Shown here: piece by piece, positions 20 through 6,700 of the stretch
Position numbering within the stretch: the first letter of the stretch is position 1
How the letters are laid out: each line of letters starts with the position of its first letter
DNA from: a virus
Taxonomy: Duplodnaviria; Heunggongvirae; Uroviricota; Caudoviricetes
Virus record (IMG/VR): IMGVR_UViG_2534682222_000016
Strand: one strand, 5' to 3'
Length of the DNA: 6,700 bases
Program-made: the position numbers and the translations under genes
The notes under the pieces: generated by a model
What the model was told of the DNA's origin: nothing
Database searches by the model: none
What the model saw: the letters and a program-made list of their open reading frames with translations, nothing else

Positions 20-1315
20 TTAATTTTTCATTGCTTCGTTATGGGGCATGGTTGGGGCAAACTCGCTTAACTGTGTATTTAACAAAGCTACCTGTGCATT
101 ATTGTTTTCAGACATCCATTTTCCGTATACCTGAAATACCATTTGCGCATCTGCATGGCCCATCTGGTTTGCTATAAATGCCGGGTTAGCACCAGCTGTC
201 AGCGACCAGCAGGCATAAGTATGTCTCGACTGATATGATTTTCGATGGCGGAGTCCGGCACGTTTTATCGCTGCGTCCCACATCTGCCTTATTGAGTCAA
301 CGGTAAAATGGTCACCATAATTTTTTACTCTCGCTGACACTTCAGGTTGAAAAACAAAGGTGCATTTTTGTTTTTCTGTTCTGCCATACTCTCTGAGGTG
401 AACATCAATGATATGCTCTTTGCTCAGTCTCGTTAATGTCATCTGGCTCCGGAGAGCGTCGATTGCTGGCTTAATAAGATGAATGACCCGATTGGTTCCC
501 GCCTGTGTTTTTGGTACCGTGAAACGGTCTTTTGCTAAATTTCTCCTGATCATCATTGTTCCATTTTTCAGATCTATGTCCTCCCATCCAAGTGCACACA
601 GCTCACCAGGGCGAACGCCAGTATAAACAGAAACACACCATAAATTTTTTGCTTGCTGATTTCTGCACGCATCGATAAGACGGATAAATTCCTCCCGCGA
701 AAGAGGATCCGGAATGGTTCTTGATTCCTTTAATGGCGAGATCCCCTTAAGCGGATTATCTGGCAGGTAACCGTTATCAACACCAAACTGGAACACGGCG
801 TTAAGATTTGTCATGTAATTATTTACAGTTACAGCCGATCGCCCTGGTTGTGTAACAATATAGTTACTTTTGGGGATCTGGTATCCAGTCAGTAGCTCTT
901 TACGAACCTCCAGTAATTTTTCTTTATTAATCGATGAGGCAAGATTTTTTTCACCGATTATGCTCAGGATATTTTTGATGACGGCACGGTATGTGTTGAG
1001 TGATGTTTTGGCGACTTCAGTTTCTTTCAGTGCCAGAAATTTTTCAGCCAGTTCTTTTATGGTTAAATCTTGTCGGGCCTCACCAAATTTTTCCAGATTG
1101 CGTGAGGAGGGAAACTGTTTTGCATAGTCGAAAACACCAGTTTTTATTGCGTAACAAACAGAGGAGCGTAGTTCACCTGCAACGCGCCTGTTTTTTGCTG
1201 TGTCAGGAACCCCCAGATTTTCCCTGACTCTTACGCCTTTATAAACAAACCAGATACGTAATTTCCCTCCATGGTTTTCCACGCCTGTCGGATATTTCAT
1301 TTCAACTTCTCTCAT
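20..1315 (-). CDS. int: Phage-type tyrosine integrase (site-specific recombinase), 431 aa
   Basis: Long minus-strand ORF from the track. The C-terminal part contains tyrosine-recombinase catalytic-type residues (Arg in TGVRPGE, RHRKSYQSRHTYA, GHADAQMVFQVYGKW with the putative Tyr nucleophile). It sits at the prophage end, next to an excisionase-like gene. An alternative start is Met6 at 1300. Confidence 0.9.
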   Translation of the reverse strand: MREVEMKYPTGVENHGGKLRIWFVYKGVRVRENLGVPDTAKNRRVAGELRSSVCYAIKTGVFDYAKQFPSSRNLEKFGEARQDLTIKELAEKFLALKETEVAKTSLNTYRAVIKNILSIIGEKNLASSINKEKLLEVRKELLTGYQIPKSNYIVTQPGRSAVTVNNYMTNLNAVFQFGVDNGYLPDNPLKGISPLKESRTIPDPLSREEFIRLIDACRNQQAKNLWCVSVYTGVRPGELCALGWEDIDLKNGTMMIRRNLAKDRFTVPKTQAGTNRVIHLIKPAIDALRSQMTLTRLSKEHIIDVHLREYGRTEKQKCTFVFQPEVSARVKNYGDHFTVDSIRQMWDAAIKRAGLRHRKSYQSRHTYACWSLTAGANPAFIANQMGHADAQMVFQVYGKWMSENNNAQVALLNTQLSEFAPTMPHNEAMKN

Positions 1316-1334: not shown

Positions 1335-1586
1335 TCAAGTAAGATGACGTCTTGGTCTCGCTGATGCCTGGCGCTCAATCCAGCGATCAATTTCTTCCAG
1401 GTTGTAAAAGCATGGACTGTTATCCCATGGCATACCGTCATGAGCGACATGCTTATATTCCCTTCCTTCCATAAACGATTTTTCCCGGGCCTTTTTTAAC
1501 GTACCTTTTTTTATTCCTTTCAGCGCAATTAACTGCTCTTCGGATACCCATTTGCCGGGAGAGACAATCATGATTACTTCGCTCAT
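1335..1586 (-). CDS. xis: Excisionase-like small DNA-binding protein (Xis), 83 aa
   Basis: An 83-aa basic ORF immediately upstream of int on the same strand, 19-bp gap. Purine-rich stretch (AAGAGATAAAGAAA) upstream of the ATG. Position and size fit a lambdoid Xis; the family assignment is by position and composition. Confidence 0.7.
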   Translation of the reverse strand: MSEVIMIVSPGKWVSEEQLIALKGIKKGTLKKAREKSFMEGREYKHVAHDGMPWDNSPCFYNLEEIDRWIERQASARPRRHLT

Positions 1587-1615
1587 CGATTTCTTTATCT
1601 CTTACATCAGACGAG

Positions 1616-1647
1616 CGCCGGTTGCAGAATACCAGTCACAACCGGCG
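1616..1647. repeat. Perfect 9-bp inverted repeat (CGCCGGTTG / CAACCGGCG) with 14-nt loop, in the exo-xis intergenic region
   Basis: Read directly: left arm 1616..1624, right arm 1639..1647, exact reverse complements. Lies 12 nt downstream of the exonuclease stop codon on the minus-strand transcript. No U-tract follows, so it is not a classical intrinsic terminator. Confidence 0.6.
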
Positions 1648-1658
1648 ACAGTTGAACA

Positions 1659-4130
1659 TTAAGAATCAGCCTGACTCGGGATCAGTTTTTGCCAGATAAC
1701 TGAAACGTATTTTGCCTGGTAACGGGCGTCATCAAGTGCATTATGGCGCTCACCTTCGAATGGAATAGCCGTTCTGGCATCGAAGTCTATGGCTTTCCCC
1801 AGCTCAACGATTGTGCGTACATCGCGATCGTTGTAGTAACGCCACGGGCAGGGGATCCCCTGCCGTTCGTATGAACGGCGCAAAATCGTGTTGTCGAAGT
1901 TGGCTCCATTTCCCCAAACCTGAACAAAAAATTCACCGGAGTTTTCGTCGATAAATTCCCGCAATTGTAACAGTGCATCATCTAACGGGATTTCATCGGT
2001 CATAATGGCAGATTGCGCTTCGCGTGATTGCTTAAGCCACCATTTAATGGTGTTCCGATCAATGACTCCGCCAGCAGTTTCCAGATCGATAGTCTTACTA
2101 AATTCCGGTCCCATATCTCCGGTTTGCGGATCGAAAAATATTGCACCTATTGAGATGATCGGGGCATCAGGATTTTTTCCCATGGTTTCAAGGTCGATCA
2201 TTAGATGGTCACACGTCCTGCTGGTGGATGTGATTTCGTGATGACCGTTCACCTTAATTGAGTGATCTGCCGTCTCGCCAGTTTCATTATCGCTATTGTG
2301 ATGCTGATTGCCGCCAGTGTTCTCCTTGTGTGGATGTTCAGCGCCTTCCATTTCCTCCGGATCATCTTCCTGAACTTCAACCTGATATTCTTCATCGAAT
2401 GTTTCTTGATATGTTGCGTCGCCCATCACCGCGCCACAATCAGGGCAGTTGCCGCCGCCGGTCTGACCGCAGGCGGTGCAGACTTTTTCCACTTCCTGTT
2501 GCGCCACTGGTTCAGGCTGTTTCGTTTCTGGCTCGTTTTGTAACGCATTTGTGCTGTTTTGTTCCGCTTTTTGGTAGTTCCGTTCCGATTCATGCTGGTT
2601 CTGGTTCACAGAATCGCGGGTCTGGATCCCCTTAACCCATTTCGGATCATTCGGGTCACTAATCCCTTCAACAAATTCACCACGTGATGCAGCAAGCAAC
2701 TTATCGGCGTCAGGCTGGCTGATATTGGCTGCCTGCATAATTTTGTTTACTTCGTCAGCGGTAACTTTTATCGGCTCTGGTTGTTCTGAATCTTCAGCGG
2801 TATCTACATTTTGCGGTAAGCCCGTGTATGTGCCATTTTTTCGGGCAAAATATTCTTCTTTTGTGATTTCAGTGGCGCCAGCAGCCAGTGCCTTATCCAG
2901 ACCAGAAAGTTTGTTTGCGCGACCGTATTTTTCTCCGTCCTTATCTGCGAAGAGGAAATAGAACGGCCCCTCACGCTCTACAGATGGTTCAGCTTCCGGC
3001 GCGGTTTCATTTTTTGGGATATCAGATACCTCAGTTTCCACTGCATCAGTTTGTGTTTCTGATGACTGGAGAACATCAACAGTGCCCAGGTCTGTTTCTT
3101 CATTCTCAAACACGCCCTTTGTCGTCAGGTATTCGCAGATATATTTGTTCAGTGCTATGGGATCTTTGTGAATGTCGATCGGACGCTCACGGACAAGGCC
3201 AAAAATAGTCTGGCGGTCGTAGCGAAGGGCATCAGGCTGTTTGCGCATTGATGCCGAGATACGCTTCCAGTCTTCGCGGTCGTTGTCGATAACTTCTTTT
3301 TTTGCCCAGCGATGGATGCTGCCGTCAATGTTTCCGGCATCCACATCACTAGGCCAGAGAGCGTAGGCCAGTTCGTCATCCAGTGTTTTCCATGTCTGCT
3401 TGTATTCGCGATGAATGGCAGCAATGACCGGGCTGATTTTTCCTGTTGAATTTTCAGTGTACTGTTGATTGGCTCTGGCGCGGGCGAGATCAACAACAGA
3501 CGTGTATTTTCCGGTTTCCTTGCGTTCACCTTCGCGACGTTTTTTCCAGATGCGCATCTCTGCCTGAATTTCGGGCCATTTAGCACCAGGAATACATTTA
3601 TGCTTAACCCACCCAATGGCGTGCAACTTAAGCTCCGGATACATGGCGTTAACTTCTGGCATTTTCATCAACGCTTCAACGATATGTCCGTCGAATGTTG
3701 CCATGTCTTCCTGCAACAATTCCTGTGCGCTAATAACCATATCAACGGTGATGTTTTCACATGTGTCGAACTTAACCATGACAGCGTTCTGTACTTCAGG
3801 GGCCAGCTTGTCAAAAGTGACGTTCATCGGATCGGATTCAGTCTCAACCGGGACAAAAGAAGCAGACTCCTCATCCCAGCGGTTTTCCTGCATATATTCA
3901 GCATCCCATGAATCGAGGGCAGGGCGGGGTATGCCAGGTTTATCCTCGCAGACAATAAATTTATAAGCGCAGTCCTGAGCAGCCGGATAATGTTCCAGGA
4001 ACTGCCAGTGAAATTTTGCTCGAGCACGGCGTTCGTCGCCAGCTTCAATGGCTGTGGCTACAGCCACAGCGCCTTCTTCCCTTGTTGCCAGTTCGTCAGG
4101 AATAGCGGCGCAAATAAAGACTTTACTCAT
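1659..4130 (-). CDS. Prophage exonuclease-like protein, 823 aa (often annotated exodeoxyribonuclease VIII/RecE-like; N-terminus YdfE-like), with C-terminal DEDDh 3'-5' exonuclease domain
   Basis: Single uninterrupted 823-aa ORF. C-terminal residues about 640-815 (nt about 1686..2213) carry the DnaQ-like motifs: Exo I MIDLETMG, Exo II WGNGANFD, Exo III HNALDDARYQ. Residues 551-565 (nt 2436..2480) form a CxxC-x7-CxxC zinc ribbon (CTACGQTGGGNCPDC). Residues about 340-640 are strongly acidic and low-complexity. Confidence 0.85.
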   Translation of the reverse strand: MSKVFICAAIPDELATREEGAVAVATAIEAGDERRARAKFHWQFLEHYPAAQDCAYKFIVCEDKPGIPRPALDSWDAEYMQENRWDEESASFVPVETESDPMNVTFDKLAPEVQNAVMVKFDTCENITVDMVISAQELLQEDMATFDGHIVEALMKMPEVNAMYPELKLHAIGWVKHKCIPGAKWPEIQAEMRIWKKRREGERKETGKYTSVVDLARARANQQYTENSTGKISPVIAAIHREYKQTWKTLDDELAYALWPSDVDAGNIDGSIHRWAKKEVIDNDREDWKRISASMRKQPDALRYDRQTIFGLVRERPIDIHKDPIALNKYICEYLTTKGVFENEETDLGTVDVLQSSETQTDAVETEVSDIPKNETAPEAEPSVEREGPFYFLFADKDGEKYGRANKLSGLDKALAAGATEITKEEYFARKNGTYTGLPQNVDTAEDSEQPEPIKVTADEVNKIMQAANISQPDADKLLAASRGEFVEGISDPNDPKWVKGIQTRDSVNQNQHESERNYQKAEQNSTNALQNEPETKQPEPVAQQEVEKVCTACGQTGGGNCPDCGAVMGDATYQETFDEEYQVEVQEDDPEEMEGAEHPHKENTGGNQHHNSDNETGETADHSIKVNGHHEITSTSRTCDHLMIDLETMGKNPDAPIISIGAIFFDPQTGDMGPEFSKTIDLETAGGVIDRNTIKWWLKQSREAQSAIMTDEIPLDDALLQLREFIDENSGEFFVQVWGNGANFDNTILRRSYERQGIPCPWRYYNDRDVRTIVELGKAIDFDARTAIPFEGERHNALDDARYQAKYVSVIWQKLIPSQADS

Positions 4131-5303: not shown

Positions 5304-5637
5304 GAACTTGCAGGACGTCATGATCGTAACTTCCATCCAAACCGCGACGGCAAATTGCTTCTCGTATTACCGGAAGCAGTTCGCTGGAAATCTCGGTGCA
5401 TATTTCACCTGCTAATACGCCTGGCTCAAGTGAGAATATTGGTGAACTTACGGTCTTGGTCTCGACAGTTTCAGAGTCAGTGCCAACATTATAAAGCTCA
5501 ACGAAAGCGGTCTTGATTTTCCGGGCCAGATCTTTTGCTGGCTCGCTTGCAATATCTTTCCCGATTTCTCGCAGCACAGAATGCAATGTATGAGCTGCTG
5601 TTTTCTGTACATCAGACGGTAAATCTTTAAATTCCAT
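5272..5637 (-). CDS. Hypothetical protein, 121 aa (position corresponds to ydfB/ydfC of Qin)
   Basis: Minus-strand ORF with codon composition typical of coding sequence. GAGG lies 6 nt upstream of the ATG at 5637. An alternative start at 5649 overlaps the ydfA stop as TGATG. Family assignment is by position only. Confidence 0.6.
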   Translation of the reverse strand: MEFKDLPSDVQKTAAHTLHSVLREIGKDIASEPAKDLARKIKTAFVELYNVGTDSETVETKTVSSPIFSLEPGVLAGEICTEISSELLPVIREAICRRGLDGSYDHDVLQVLRTMVTSLGI

Positions 5638-5648
5638 CGTCAGCCTCA

Positions 5649-5801
5649 TCAGTCAGTGTTTCTGGCTAACCAGCAACGCGCGCCAGATTCGGTTTTAAAC
5701 GTTTTGCTTTTGGTATATGTCATCGCGGTGAACGTACCGTCCTGGTTGGGGAACACGCCACATACCAGAGATTCGCTGTTGCCAAGATCGATAGTATCCA
5801 T
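5649..5801 (-). CDS. ydfA: YdfA-like small protein, 50 aa
   Basis: Internal ATG at 5801 with GAGG 5 nt upstream gives MDTIDLGNSESLVCGVFPNQDGTFTAMTYTKSKTFKTESGARCWLARNTD. The longer track ORF (start 5957) would contain the predicted promoter -35/-10 and operator, so the short form is preferred. First gene after the leftward promoter, as ydfA is in Qin. Confidence 0.65.
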   Translation of the reverse strand: MDTIDLGNSESLVCGVFPNQDGTFTAMTYTKSKTFKTESGARCWLARNTD

Positions 5802-5877
5802 GCTGACCTCATTTCCCCTTAACGCCGGGGTAGCGGAACTGTTTGCTGAGAACACCGTGCGGTGTGTTGATGGAGGT

Positions 5878-5960
5878 AATTTAGATTTCTCATTATTTTT
5901 CGTCAAGGTTTTTTGATGAGAAAACTCAAGTATTGGCGCAAGATAAAGCCAATACATTGA
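5878..5960. promoter_or_regulatory. Leftward early promoter (dicBp-like) with operator-like motif and adjacent inverted repeat
   Basis: On the minus strand: -35 TTGACG (plus 5901..5906), 17-nt spacer, -10 TAAATT (plus 5878..5883). Just upstream lies ATGAGAAAACTCAAGTATTGG (5916..5936), sharing a roughly 20-nt motif with the dicA/dicC intergenic region. It overlaps a perfect 8-bp inverted repeat GTATTGGC (5930..5937) / GCCAATAC (5948..5955), which could also act as a terminator-like hairpin after dicA. Confidence 0.5.
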
Positions 5961-5993
5961 AATGTAAGGCTTTAAAATTTTGTGAAGGGATGA

Positions 5994-6401
5994 TTATTGA
6001 TGCTTGTTGCGTTTGCGAGCCTCTAATAGCTCGGTGAACAGGCGATTAAAATTCTCAACGCGGGCGCGGAGTTCGCTGAGTTGTGCTTGTTGCTCTGATT
6101 TAGGAAGTGCGCGATACAAACGCAGCATCTCTAACTCATCTTCCGATAAGTCTAAGGCACTATCGAGTGAAACAGGGGGAGCTGGTGTTTTGTCCTCGTC
6201 GCCAAACAGTATCCAGGTTGGTGAACATTGCAATACCTCGGCGAGGCGATGCAAATTTTGCCCACGCGGGGCTGTATGGTCACTTTCCCATAATGAAATT
6301 GATGAGCCAGATACGCCAGCAGCTTTGCTTAAACCGTTTTGACTTAAGCCTACCTGCTTACGTCTTTCTCTAATGCGTTGACCTAAAGTTTTCTCGTTCA
6401 T
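5994..6401 (-). CDS. dicA: DicA-like XRE-family HTH repressor (prophage immunity repressor), 135 aa
   Basis: Start at the internal Met gives an N-terminal HTH (MNEKTLGQRIRERRKQVGLSQNGLSKAAGVSGSSISLWE...) followed by LQCSPTWILFGDEDK, which I recognise as DicA/RacR-family. It is divergent from a Cro-like gene. An alternative upstream ATG at 6452 has no RBS and would overlap the rightward promoter. Confidence 0.85.
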   Translation of the reverse strand: MNEKTLGQRIRERRKQVGLSQNGLSKAAGVSGSSISLWESDHTAPRGQNLHRLAEVLQCSPTWILFGDEDKTPAPPVSLDSALDLSEDELEMLRLYRALPKSEQQAQLSELRARVENFNRLFTELLEARKRNKHQ

Positions 6402-6478
6402 ATTTAGATATCTTAATAACCCTTGACTTGAGATTCCTTGAGTGATTAGCATTGAGAAAACTCAATATTGGAGGTGCG
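6402..6478. promoter_or_regulatory. Divergent promoter/operator region of the dicA-dicC immunity switch
   Basis: Rightward candidate promoter: -35 TTGACT (6423..6428), 18-nt spacer, -10 TAGCAT (6447..6452). The inverted repeat TTGAG-AAAA-CTCAA (6452..6465) followed by TATTGG overlaps the -10 and start region. TTGAG half-sites also occur at 6428 and 6438. GGAGG (6470..6474) is the RBS for the plus-strand gene. Confidence 0.6.
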
Positions 6479-6700
6479 ATGTTTAAATCAGACGTAATTA
6501 ATTTTTACGGTACGAAAGCCAAAGTAGCGAAAGCTGCTGGCGTTGACCCATCTGCTGTTTCTCAATGGCAAGAGCTGGTTCCTGAAGGTCGCGCGATGCG
6601 TCTAGCCAGGCAGGCTATAAAGATATGGGACCATTTGTGGCTGCAATACACGAGTGGGCGGACCTTGAATCATACTTTGAGGTGTATCGTGATAATCTGA
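6479..6700 (+). CDS. dicC: DicC/Cro-like small HTH regulator, 73 aa
   Basis: ATG at 6479 is preceded by GGAGG at 4-nt spacing. The N-terminus FYGTKAKVAKAAGVDPSAVSQWQ is a Cro/YdaS-type HTH. In-frame TGA at 6698..6700 ends the gene exactly at the window edge. Divergent from dicA across an operator region. Confidence 0.7.
   Translation: MFKSDVINFYGTKAKVAKAAGVDPSAVSQWQELVPEGRAMRLARQAIKIWDHLWLQYTSGRTLNHTLRCIVII

Follow-up and report, generated by a model that had tools for sequence, protein, structure and literature searches.

What operator controls the immunity switch of a Qin-like prophage in which the repressor and dicC-like genes diverge, and which of the two proteins does it serve? The window, by which we mean the whole 6,700-nt stretch of viral DNA analysed here, carries a palindrome between these genes. 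We conclude that a perfect dyad at 6451-6466 is very probably the high-affinity operator of the adjacent 135-aa DicA-like repressor, whose HTH is of the P22 C2 type. No occurrence of the operator word was found in the searched literature, nor any account of mEp460 immunity: mEp460 is named there only in prophage-prediction lists. The operator word and the immunity specificity appear to be new; the system itself reads as an ordinary DicA/DicC, P22 C2/Cro-type immunity region.

The prophage arm and its divergent gene pair

The DNA of the window forms the left arm of a lambdoid prophage of the Qin/mEp460 type, and near-identical E. coli loci are integrated beside rspB. It is identical to phage mEp460 up to position 6604, and the immunity type is common: among 5,426 complete E. 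coli genomes, 777 have most of the region 5600-6700. The genes are as follows.

20-1315, minus strand: integrase
1335-1586, minus strand: excisionase
1659-4130, minus strand: exonuclease of 823 aa
4775-4826, minus strand: full-length DicF sRNA (Rfam RF00039, 72.5 bits)
5649-5801, minus strand: DUF1391/YdfA gene
5994-6401, minus strand: DicA-like immunity repressor of 135 aa (HTH_3, E 2e-15), with a short DicA-type C-terminal domain
6470-6700, plus strand: DicC-like gene of the P22_Cro family with its Shine-Dalgarno sequence, ATG at 6479, native only to 6604 and followed by unrelated late-region DNA

A ydfA-dicF-dicB operon lies downstream of the leftward promoter described below: the DUF1391 gene and DicF were found in the window, and dicB and ydfD are annotated in a near-identical locus.

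Over residues 5-131, in effect its whole length including the short C-terminal domain, the repressor shares 57% identity with K-12 DicA. Pfam returned HTH families only, and no peptidase domain, for the 135-aa protein. Its N-terminal domain matches the DNA-binding domain of P22 C2 (E 8e-16; PDB 1ADR, 2R1J, 3JXB).

The partner gene is damaged. The window's dicC retains 42 native codons, which cover positions 2-43 of the 60 in the P22_Cro profile; an intact DicC has about 75 aa, and the intact Cro-like protein of mEp460 is 70% identical to K-12 DicC. At 6604 the homology with mEp460 and with every E. coli copy breaks off, and the DNA at 6605-6700 is found elsewhere inside a 319-aa gene between Q and holin. 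As read from the sequence, this arrangement implies a deletion of the ydaT, replication, nin and Q genes. Neither the 5,426 complete E. coli genomes nor the 97 collected loci contained the junction at 6604. With dicC cut after 42 codons by the deletion, the window probably has no working Cro arm, which would leave a one-sided switch. The repressor-operator pair appears to be intact, and would still guard dicB and dicF.

A palindrome repeated at both predicted promoters

The dyad between the HTH_3 repressor gene and the P22_Cro gene has a perfect 6-4-6 structure, ATTGAG-AAAA-CTCAAT (ATTGAGAAAACTCAAT), with half-site centres 10 bp apart. An earlier note on this DNA had reported an inverted repeat with a 4-nt spacer at 6452-6465, and TTGAG-AAAA-CTCAA (TTGAGAAAACTCAA) is present at exactly those positions; the symmetry gains one base on each side to give ATTGAGAAAACTCAAT. 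The overlap with the candidate -10 hexamer TAGCAT, which the same note had claimed, is borne out and amounts to 1-2 nt. The regulatory features of the region are these.

5878-5906, minus strand: predicted leftward promoter (dicBp, PL-like), -35 TTGACG at 5906-5901, 17-nt spacer, -10 TAAATT at 5883-5878
5879-5894: predicted OL1-like operator copy ATTTAGATTTCTCATT with 3 mismatches, across the leftward spacer and -10
5915-5930: predicted OL2-like operator copy GATGAGAAAACTCAAG, just upstream of the leftward -35
5926-5959, minus strand: stable hairpin, probable dicA terminator, directly after the repressor stop codon
6402-6417: Oa/OR3-like imperfect dyad ATTTAG-ATAT-CTTAAT (ATTTAGATATCTTAAT), of putative function, matching the operator at 10 of 12 half-site positions
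6423-6452, plus strand: predicted rightward promoter (dicCp, PR-like), -35 TTGACT at 6423-6428, 18-nt spacer, -10 TAGCAT at 6447-6452
6428-6432 and 6438-6442, plus strand: two extra TTGAG words in the promoter spacer, with a doubtful weak Om-like site at 6427-6442 (CTTGAGATTCCTTGAG)
6451-6466: predicted primary operator (Oc or OR1 equivalent), by its dyad, its conservation and a position like that of K-12 Oc

Between 5700 and 6700, TTGACT-18-TAGCAT is the sole plus-strand sigma-70-like site and TTGACG-17-TAAATT, which stands before the ydfA-dicF-dicB operon, the sole promoter-like site on the minus strand; the scan by itself is at chance level (2 sites against 1.5 expected). The rightward promoter whose -10 the dyad overlaps thus comes from a scan that is not above chance, and relatives retain its hexamers: CTTGAC at the -35 never varies, and the -10 keeps the form TAnnAT (TAGCAT, TACTAT, TAGTAT, TATCAT) with an unchanged spacer.

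The dyad stands out statistically. The 14-mer pattern with at most 1 mismatch had 2 matches in the window against 0.27 expected, and the 16-mer with at most 3 mismatches had 3 matches against 0.16 expected, a number that none of 200 shuffles reached. Each of the three 16-mer matches sits at one of the two promoters on either side of the repressor gene, and none lies elsewhere in the window. An unbiased search for the best 14-mer common to the 110 nt upstream of the repressor gene and the 150 nt that follow it returned the ATTGAGAAAACTCAAT dyad with 1 mismatch, and shuffles equalled the window's score in 1 of 300 trials. The dyad word came out on top of this search not only in the window but also in two loci from Buttiauxella, L006 and L007 (0-1 mismatch; 1-3 of 300 shuffles gave a shared 14-mer with at most 1 mismatch).

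The two leftward copies bracket the -35 of the predicted leftward promoter and span its spacer and -10. The earlier note had missed them, and they are the best internal evidence that the palindrome would be an operator. At the OL2 position L006 has a perfect ATTGAGAAAACTCAAT, and the OL1-like site reads TTAGTTTTCTCA in all relatives. Because OL2 lies upstream of the -35, a protein bound there need not repress. We also observed that the centre of OL1 reads AGATTTCT in the window, whereas mEp460, both genome-contig copies and 79 of 79 viral-contig loci have AGTTTTCT; the A at position 5885 is therefore a private substitution of the window, in a centre that is presumably not contacted.

The 3' arm of the hairpin at 5926-5959 overlaps the OL2-like operator. 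This hairpin has a dG of -13.2 kcal/mol (z -4.6), none of 200 shuffles was equally stable, and it is followed by GUUUUCUC, so that it is probably the terminator of the repressor gene. A clearer hairpin with a T-run stands at the same place in the locus L015.

The hairpin also accounts for part of another observation. The earlier note had drawn attention to TATTGG after the palindrome. The hexamer is indeed present, at 6466-6471, with no detectable role there; it merges into the Shine-Dalgarno sequence GGAGG (6470-6474), which lies 4 nt ahead of the dicC-like ATG at 6479. TATTGG stands next to the OL2 copy as well, because it is one arm of the terminator-like hairpin. We rejected TATTGG as an extension of the operator: its register is shifted by 1 nt between the Oc and OL2 copies, and it is not conserved, the equivalents in relatives being TACTGG, CTTTGG, TATCGG and GTTTGG.

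A scan with the repressor protein, taking one genome per species, yielded 13 loci. The cross-genus footprint consists of the two Buttiauxella loci, from two species whose repressors are 74-76% identical to that of the window and have the same recognition helix, S[G/D]SSISLWES. Both loci keep TGAGAAAACTCA at all three operator positions, and the flanking bases diverge. The dicC-promoter site is ATTGAGAAAACTCAAT in L006 and ATTGAGAAAACTCAGG in L007, and at the downstream promoter a perfect or near-perfect dyad lies upstream of the -35 and (A/C)TTGAGAAAACTAA(AT/CC) across the spacer and -10.

No change was seen in the core TTGAGAAAACTCA across 79 viral-contig loci of this immunity type, which comprise 14 intergenic haplotypes, or across the two Buttiauxella species. 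Among the 79 loci the 14-bp core has no substitution and all six flanking positions, three per side, vary (hypergeometric P 0.045); most E. coli copies are near-identical, so that this within-species footprint is weak, supportive but not decisive. The AAAA centre of the dicC-promoter dyad is kept in every relative and species compared. The exact 16-mer has at least 122 matches in IMG/VR contigs, and among the matches listed 76 have this repressor type at a distance of at most 900 nt; an extra copy within 900 nt was found for 74 of these 76 and for 7 of the 46 others.

The dyad also covaries with the recognition helix of the repressor. Several dyad families occur at equivalent positions, each with a helix of its own: the dyad is TTGTTGAGTTTATTTAACAA in C. 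braakii, TAACTTTTGTTA in E. whittamii and LSJC7, and TTGTTAGATTTTCCTAACAA-like in Yersinia, Rosenbergiella and Symbiopectobacterium. Sequence, positions, copy number, conservation and covariation of the dyad are all direct observations on these loci.

Two side observations were made in the course of these comparisons. Identical copies of the repressor (L004 and L005) occur in MAGs labelled Bacillota and Veillonella parvula, and a 58% identical relative (L009) in one labelled Collinsella; these off-taxon labels most likely reflect binning contamination. In addition, the unrelated phage contig L103 (region 1384-1706; likewise L160) has an XRE repressor gene (920-1303, minus strand) divergent from a cro-like gene (1465-1695, plus strand), and at operator-like positions it carries ATTTAGAAAACTCAAA, ATTGAGAAAACTCAAT and ATTGAGAATTCTCAAT. 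Its recognition helix, DPASISSYLSG, is loosely like SGSSISLWESD, and its use of the operator word may be convergent or distantly related.

Proposed occupancy of the dyad and its alternatives

The earlier note had proposed a palindromic operator of the DicA-like repressor over the dicC promoter, acting as an immunity switch, and the comparative evidence, together with the analogy to K-12 Oc, strongly supports that proposal. Since the repressor has a C2-like N-terminal domain, the half-site geometry matches and K-12 provides a precedent, we infer that a repressor dimer occupies 6451-6466. The dimer would place one recognition helix on each TTGAG half-site, one helical turn apart, across an A-tract centre that it would not contact. 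The bound site would span the end of the -10 and the expected start of the rightward promoter, and RNA polymerase would be excluded. Because the site covers these elements, the bound repressor is expected to keep dicC and the genes downstream of it silent. The same repressor would bind 5915-5930 and 5879-5894 and thereby silence the ydfA-dicF-dicB operon. One exchangeable immunity cassette, with a specificity unlike that of K-12 Qin, would comprise the three sites together with the HTHs of the repressor and of Cro. Both physical binding and repression by the repressor are predicted here from the DNA. The earlier note had also allowed for dicA autoregulation; positive autoregulation through the dyad is an expectation taken over from K-12 only.

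The earlier note had further described TTGAG half-sites upstream of the palindrome at about 10-nt intervals, and had seen in the arrangement a pattern consistent with cooperative repressor binding. The words are there, at 6428 and 6438, but their spacing is not uniform, being 10 nt in one case and 14 nt in the other. Both words are oriented like the left arm of the dyad and are therefore direct repeats, not dyads; they have no acceptable dyad partner and are altered in relatives, which argues against calling them half-sites. One could still suppose a tripartite operator like that of lambda, in which the two words would be a weak middle site, filled cooperatively and stimulating the repressor promoter. 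We regard this as possible though rather unlikely. The 77-nt intergenic region is rich in TTGAG/CTCAA words (four words at a background of 0.0024 per nt, P ~3e-5, a post hoc value), and between the centre of the candidate at 6427-6442 and the centres of Oc and the Oa-like site there are 24 and 25 bp respectively, a lambda-like spacing. Three operator-like sequences were also described in K-12 by earlier authors (PMC10448788), but the corresponding K-12 sequences, Om and Oa, showed no binding of DicA when each was assayed by itself (PMC3441716). The candidate itself, the best 16-mer on the upstream words, matches the operator at 8 of 12 half-site positions. In Buttiauxella the words read CTGAG and TTGCG, and L090-type E. 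coli prophages have TTGAA for one of them, whereas the core of the main dyad is unchanged in both. Finally, the cooperativity domain of C2 and cI has no relationship to the short C-terminal domain of DicA.

The second alternative concerns the protein and not the DNA: the dyad could chiefly be the site of the DicC/Cro-like protein. Lambdoid Cro proteins share operators with their repressors (textbook knowledge; PMC10448788), and because such sharing is normal, sequence alone cannot say which of the two proteins the dyad serves best. The Cro helix PSAVSQW, moreover, is conserved in exactly the TTGAG-type loci, namely the window, Buttiauxella and C. braakii. Against these points, a site over the -10/+1 of the cro promoter is the first choice of the repressor in lambda, P22 and K-12 Qin, the Cro target to be expected would be the repressor-proximal Oa-like site, and the dyad is maintained in the window despite the truncated dicC. 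We therefore consider it improbable that Cro is the main ligand of the dyad.

The Oa-like dyad at 6402-6417 adjoins the repressor start codon. It is invariant in the window, E. coli and Buttiauxella, and nearly so in the C. braakii loci, which have a different immunity type. It resembles the P22 consensus ATTTAAGATATCTTAAAT (PMC5175364), with TTAAG in one arm only.

An RNA hairpin in the dicC leader controlling translation or stability, or a chance palindrome, is very improbable indeed: a 5-bp stem with an AAAA loop could form 14 nt upstream of the Shine-Dalgarno sequence, but it is weak (centroid -3.1 kcal/mol) and indistinguishable from shuffles (z -0.37, 64 of 200 fold as well), on which ground we rejected a hairpin role, the word recurs in the leftward promoter DNA in both orientations with one copy imperfect as a hairpin, and chance predicts 0.16 copies where 3 were found.

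Returning to the repressor as the ligand of the dyad, we noted a further property of the start of its gene. In every immunity type (the window and the equivalents in L006-L014) a -10-like TAnnAT precedes the repressor ATG by 8-9 nt, with no Shine-Dalgarno sequence. A -10-like hexamer this close to the ATG, together with the missing Shine-Dalgarno sequence, points to a leaderless repressor mRNA, as for lambda cI, and suggests that Oc would be centred near -57 of that transcript. In the window the hexamer, TAAGAT on the minus strand, 8 nt before the ATG, falls inside the near-P22-consensus dyad at 6402-6417.

A switch simpler than that of lambda or P22 may be sketched tentatively. A single strong PR operator would block dicC and, from about -57, activate the leaderless repressor transcript; the Oa-like site would be the Cro target, and TTGAG-N4-CTCAA would be a portable recognition code. 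The idea of portability comes from the unrelated XRE repressor/cro pair of L103 and L160, which reuses the word in three operator-like copies. We think that this scheme as a whole is less likely to be right than wrong by a wide measure.

Knowledge of the operator word would make the homo- and hetero-immunity of Qin/mEp460-like prophages predictable, and would serve the design of reporters and decoys and the reading of natural operator variants. The general picture of phage switches is unchanged by the finding.

Comparison with K-12 Qin, P22 and lambda

The closest known system is that of K-12 Qin (Bejar/Bouche; Yun et al. 2012, PMC3441716). Window and K-12 have the same gene order, dicC diverging from dicA and dicA followed by ydfA-dicF-dicB, and both lie beside rspB. 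K-12 carries Oc, TTGTTAGTCATAACTAACAA, at the equivalent place relative to the identical -35 TTGACT, the -10 and the dicC ATG, so that in both the dyad begins at the -10 end and stops 12-14 nt before the ATG. In both, two further operator copies flank the dicBp -35, those of K-12 being related to Oc. K-12 Oc overlaps the -10 of a dicC promoter mapped by 5'RACE, and single-base changes in it abolish DicA binding in vivo (PMC3441716). Repression of dicC by K-12 DicA is about 700-fold, and the weak promoter of dicA is activated by the same protein (PMC3441716).

The words themselves differ. The K-12 Oc word is TTGTTAGT-N4-ACTAACAA, of 20 bp, whereas that of the window is ATTGAG-N4-CTCAAT, of 16 bp. 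The K-12 operator, TTGTTAGTN4ACTAACAA, has no match within 3 mismatches in the window, and the window word likewise has none in the K-12 locus, suggesting that the specificity differs from that of K-12. The recognition helices differ too (SGSSISLWE in the window, SHVSVSQWE in K-12), and dicC is truncated in the window, unlike in K-12. An alignment of the two loci shows about 95% identity from 5640 to about 5872 and, after a sharp border at about 5873, some 50-60% rightward. The low similarity runs through the leftward operators, the repressor N-terminus, the intergenic region and dicC, with the DicA C-terminal domain as a partly conserved island. This pattern has the form of a classical immunity-cassette mosaic. 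Because the border lies immediately beside the leftward promoter, the operators appear to travel with the repressor gene as one cassette.

P22 C2 offers the structural parallel (2R1J). C2 dimers read TTAAG-N4-CTTAA, with an uncontacted 4-bp A/T centre and half-sites one helical turn apart (PMC5175364). The window is like this system in its homologous HTH, its 5-bp half-sites, its 4-bp A/T centre and the TTxAG-N4-CTxAA geometry. The half-site is TTAAG in P22 but TTGAG in the main dyad of the window, and residues V33 and Q37 of the C2 helix are S and L in the window repressor, according to an alignment of the two sequences. Knowing the operator word would allow the helix changes V33S and Q37L to be related to a single-base change of the half-site, TTAAG to TTGAG. 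C2 also has a C-terminal S24 peptidase/cooperativity domain that the window repressor lacks, its short DicA C-terminal domain being unrelated, so that RecA-mediated cleavage and pairwise cooperativity of the C2 type are not expected. K-12 DicA is induced by the antirepressor Rem (PMC10448788). For a 135-aa repressor with no peptidase domain, induction by an antirepressor, as by Rem, is probable rather than cleavage through RecA.

Lambda, with its OR/OL-cI-cro region, is the more distant parallel. The window shares with it a divergent repressor/cro pair, operators over PR-like and PL-like promoters, and an immunity cassette exchanged as a mosaic block. It differs from lambda in having one evident strong site at PR, two rather than three sites at PL, and a much shorter repressor.
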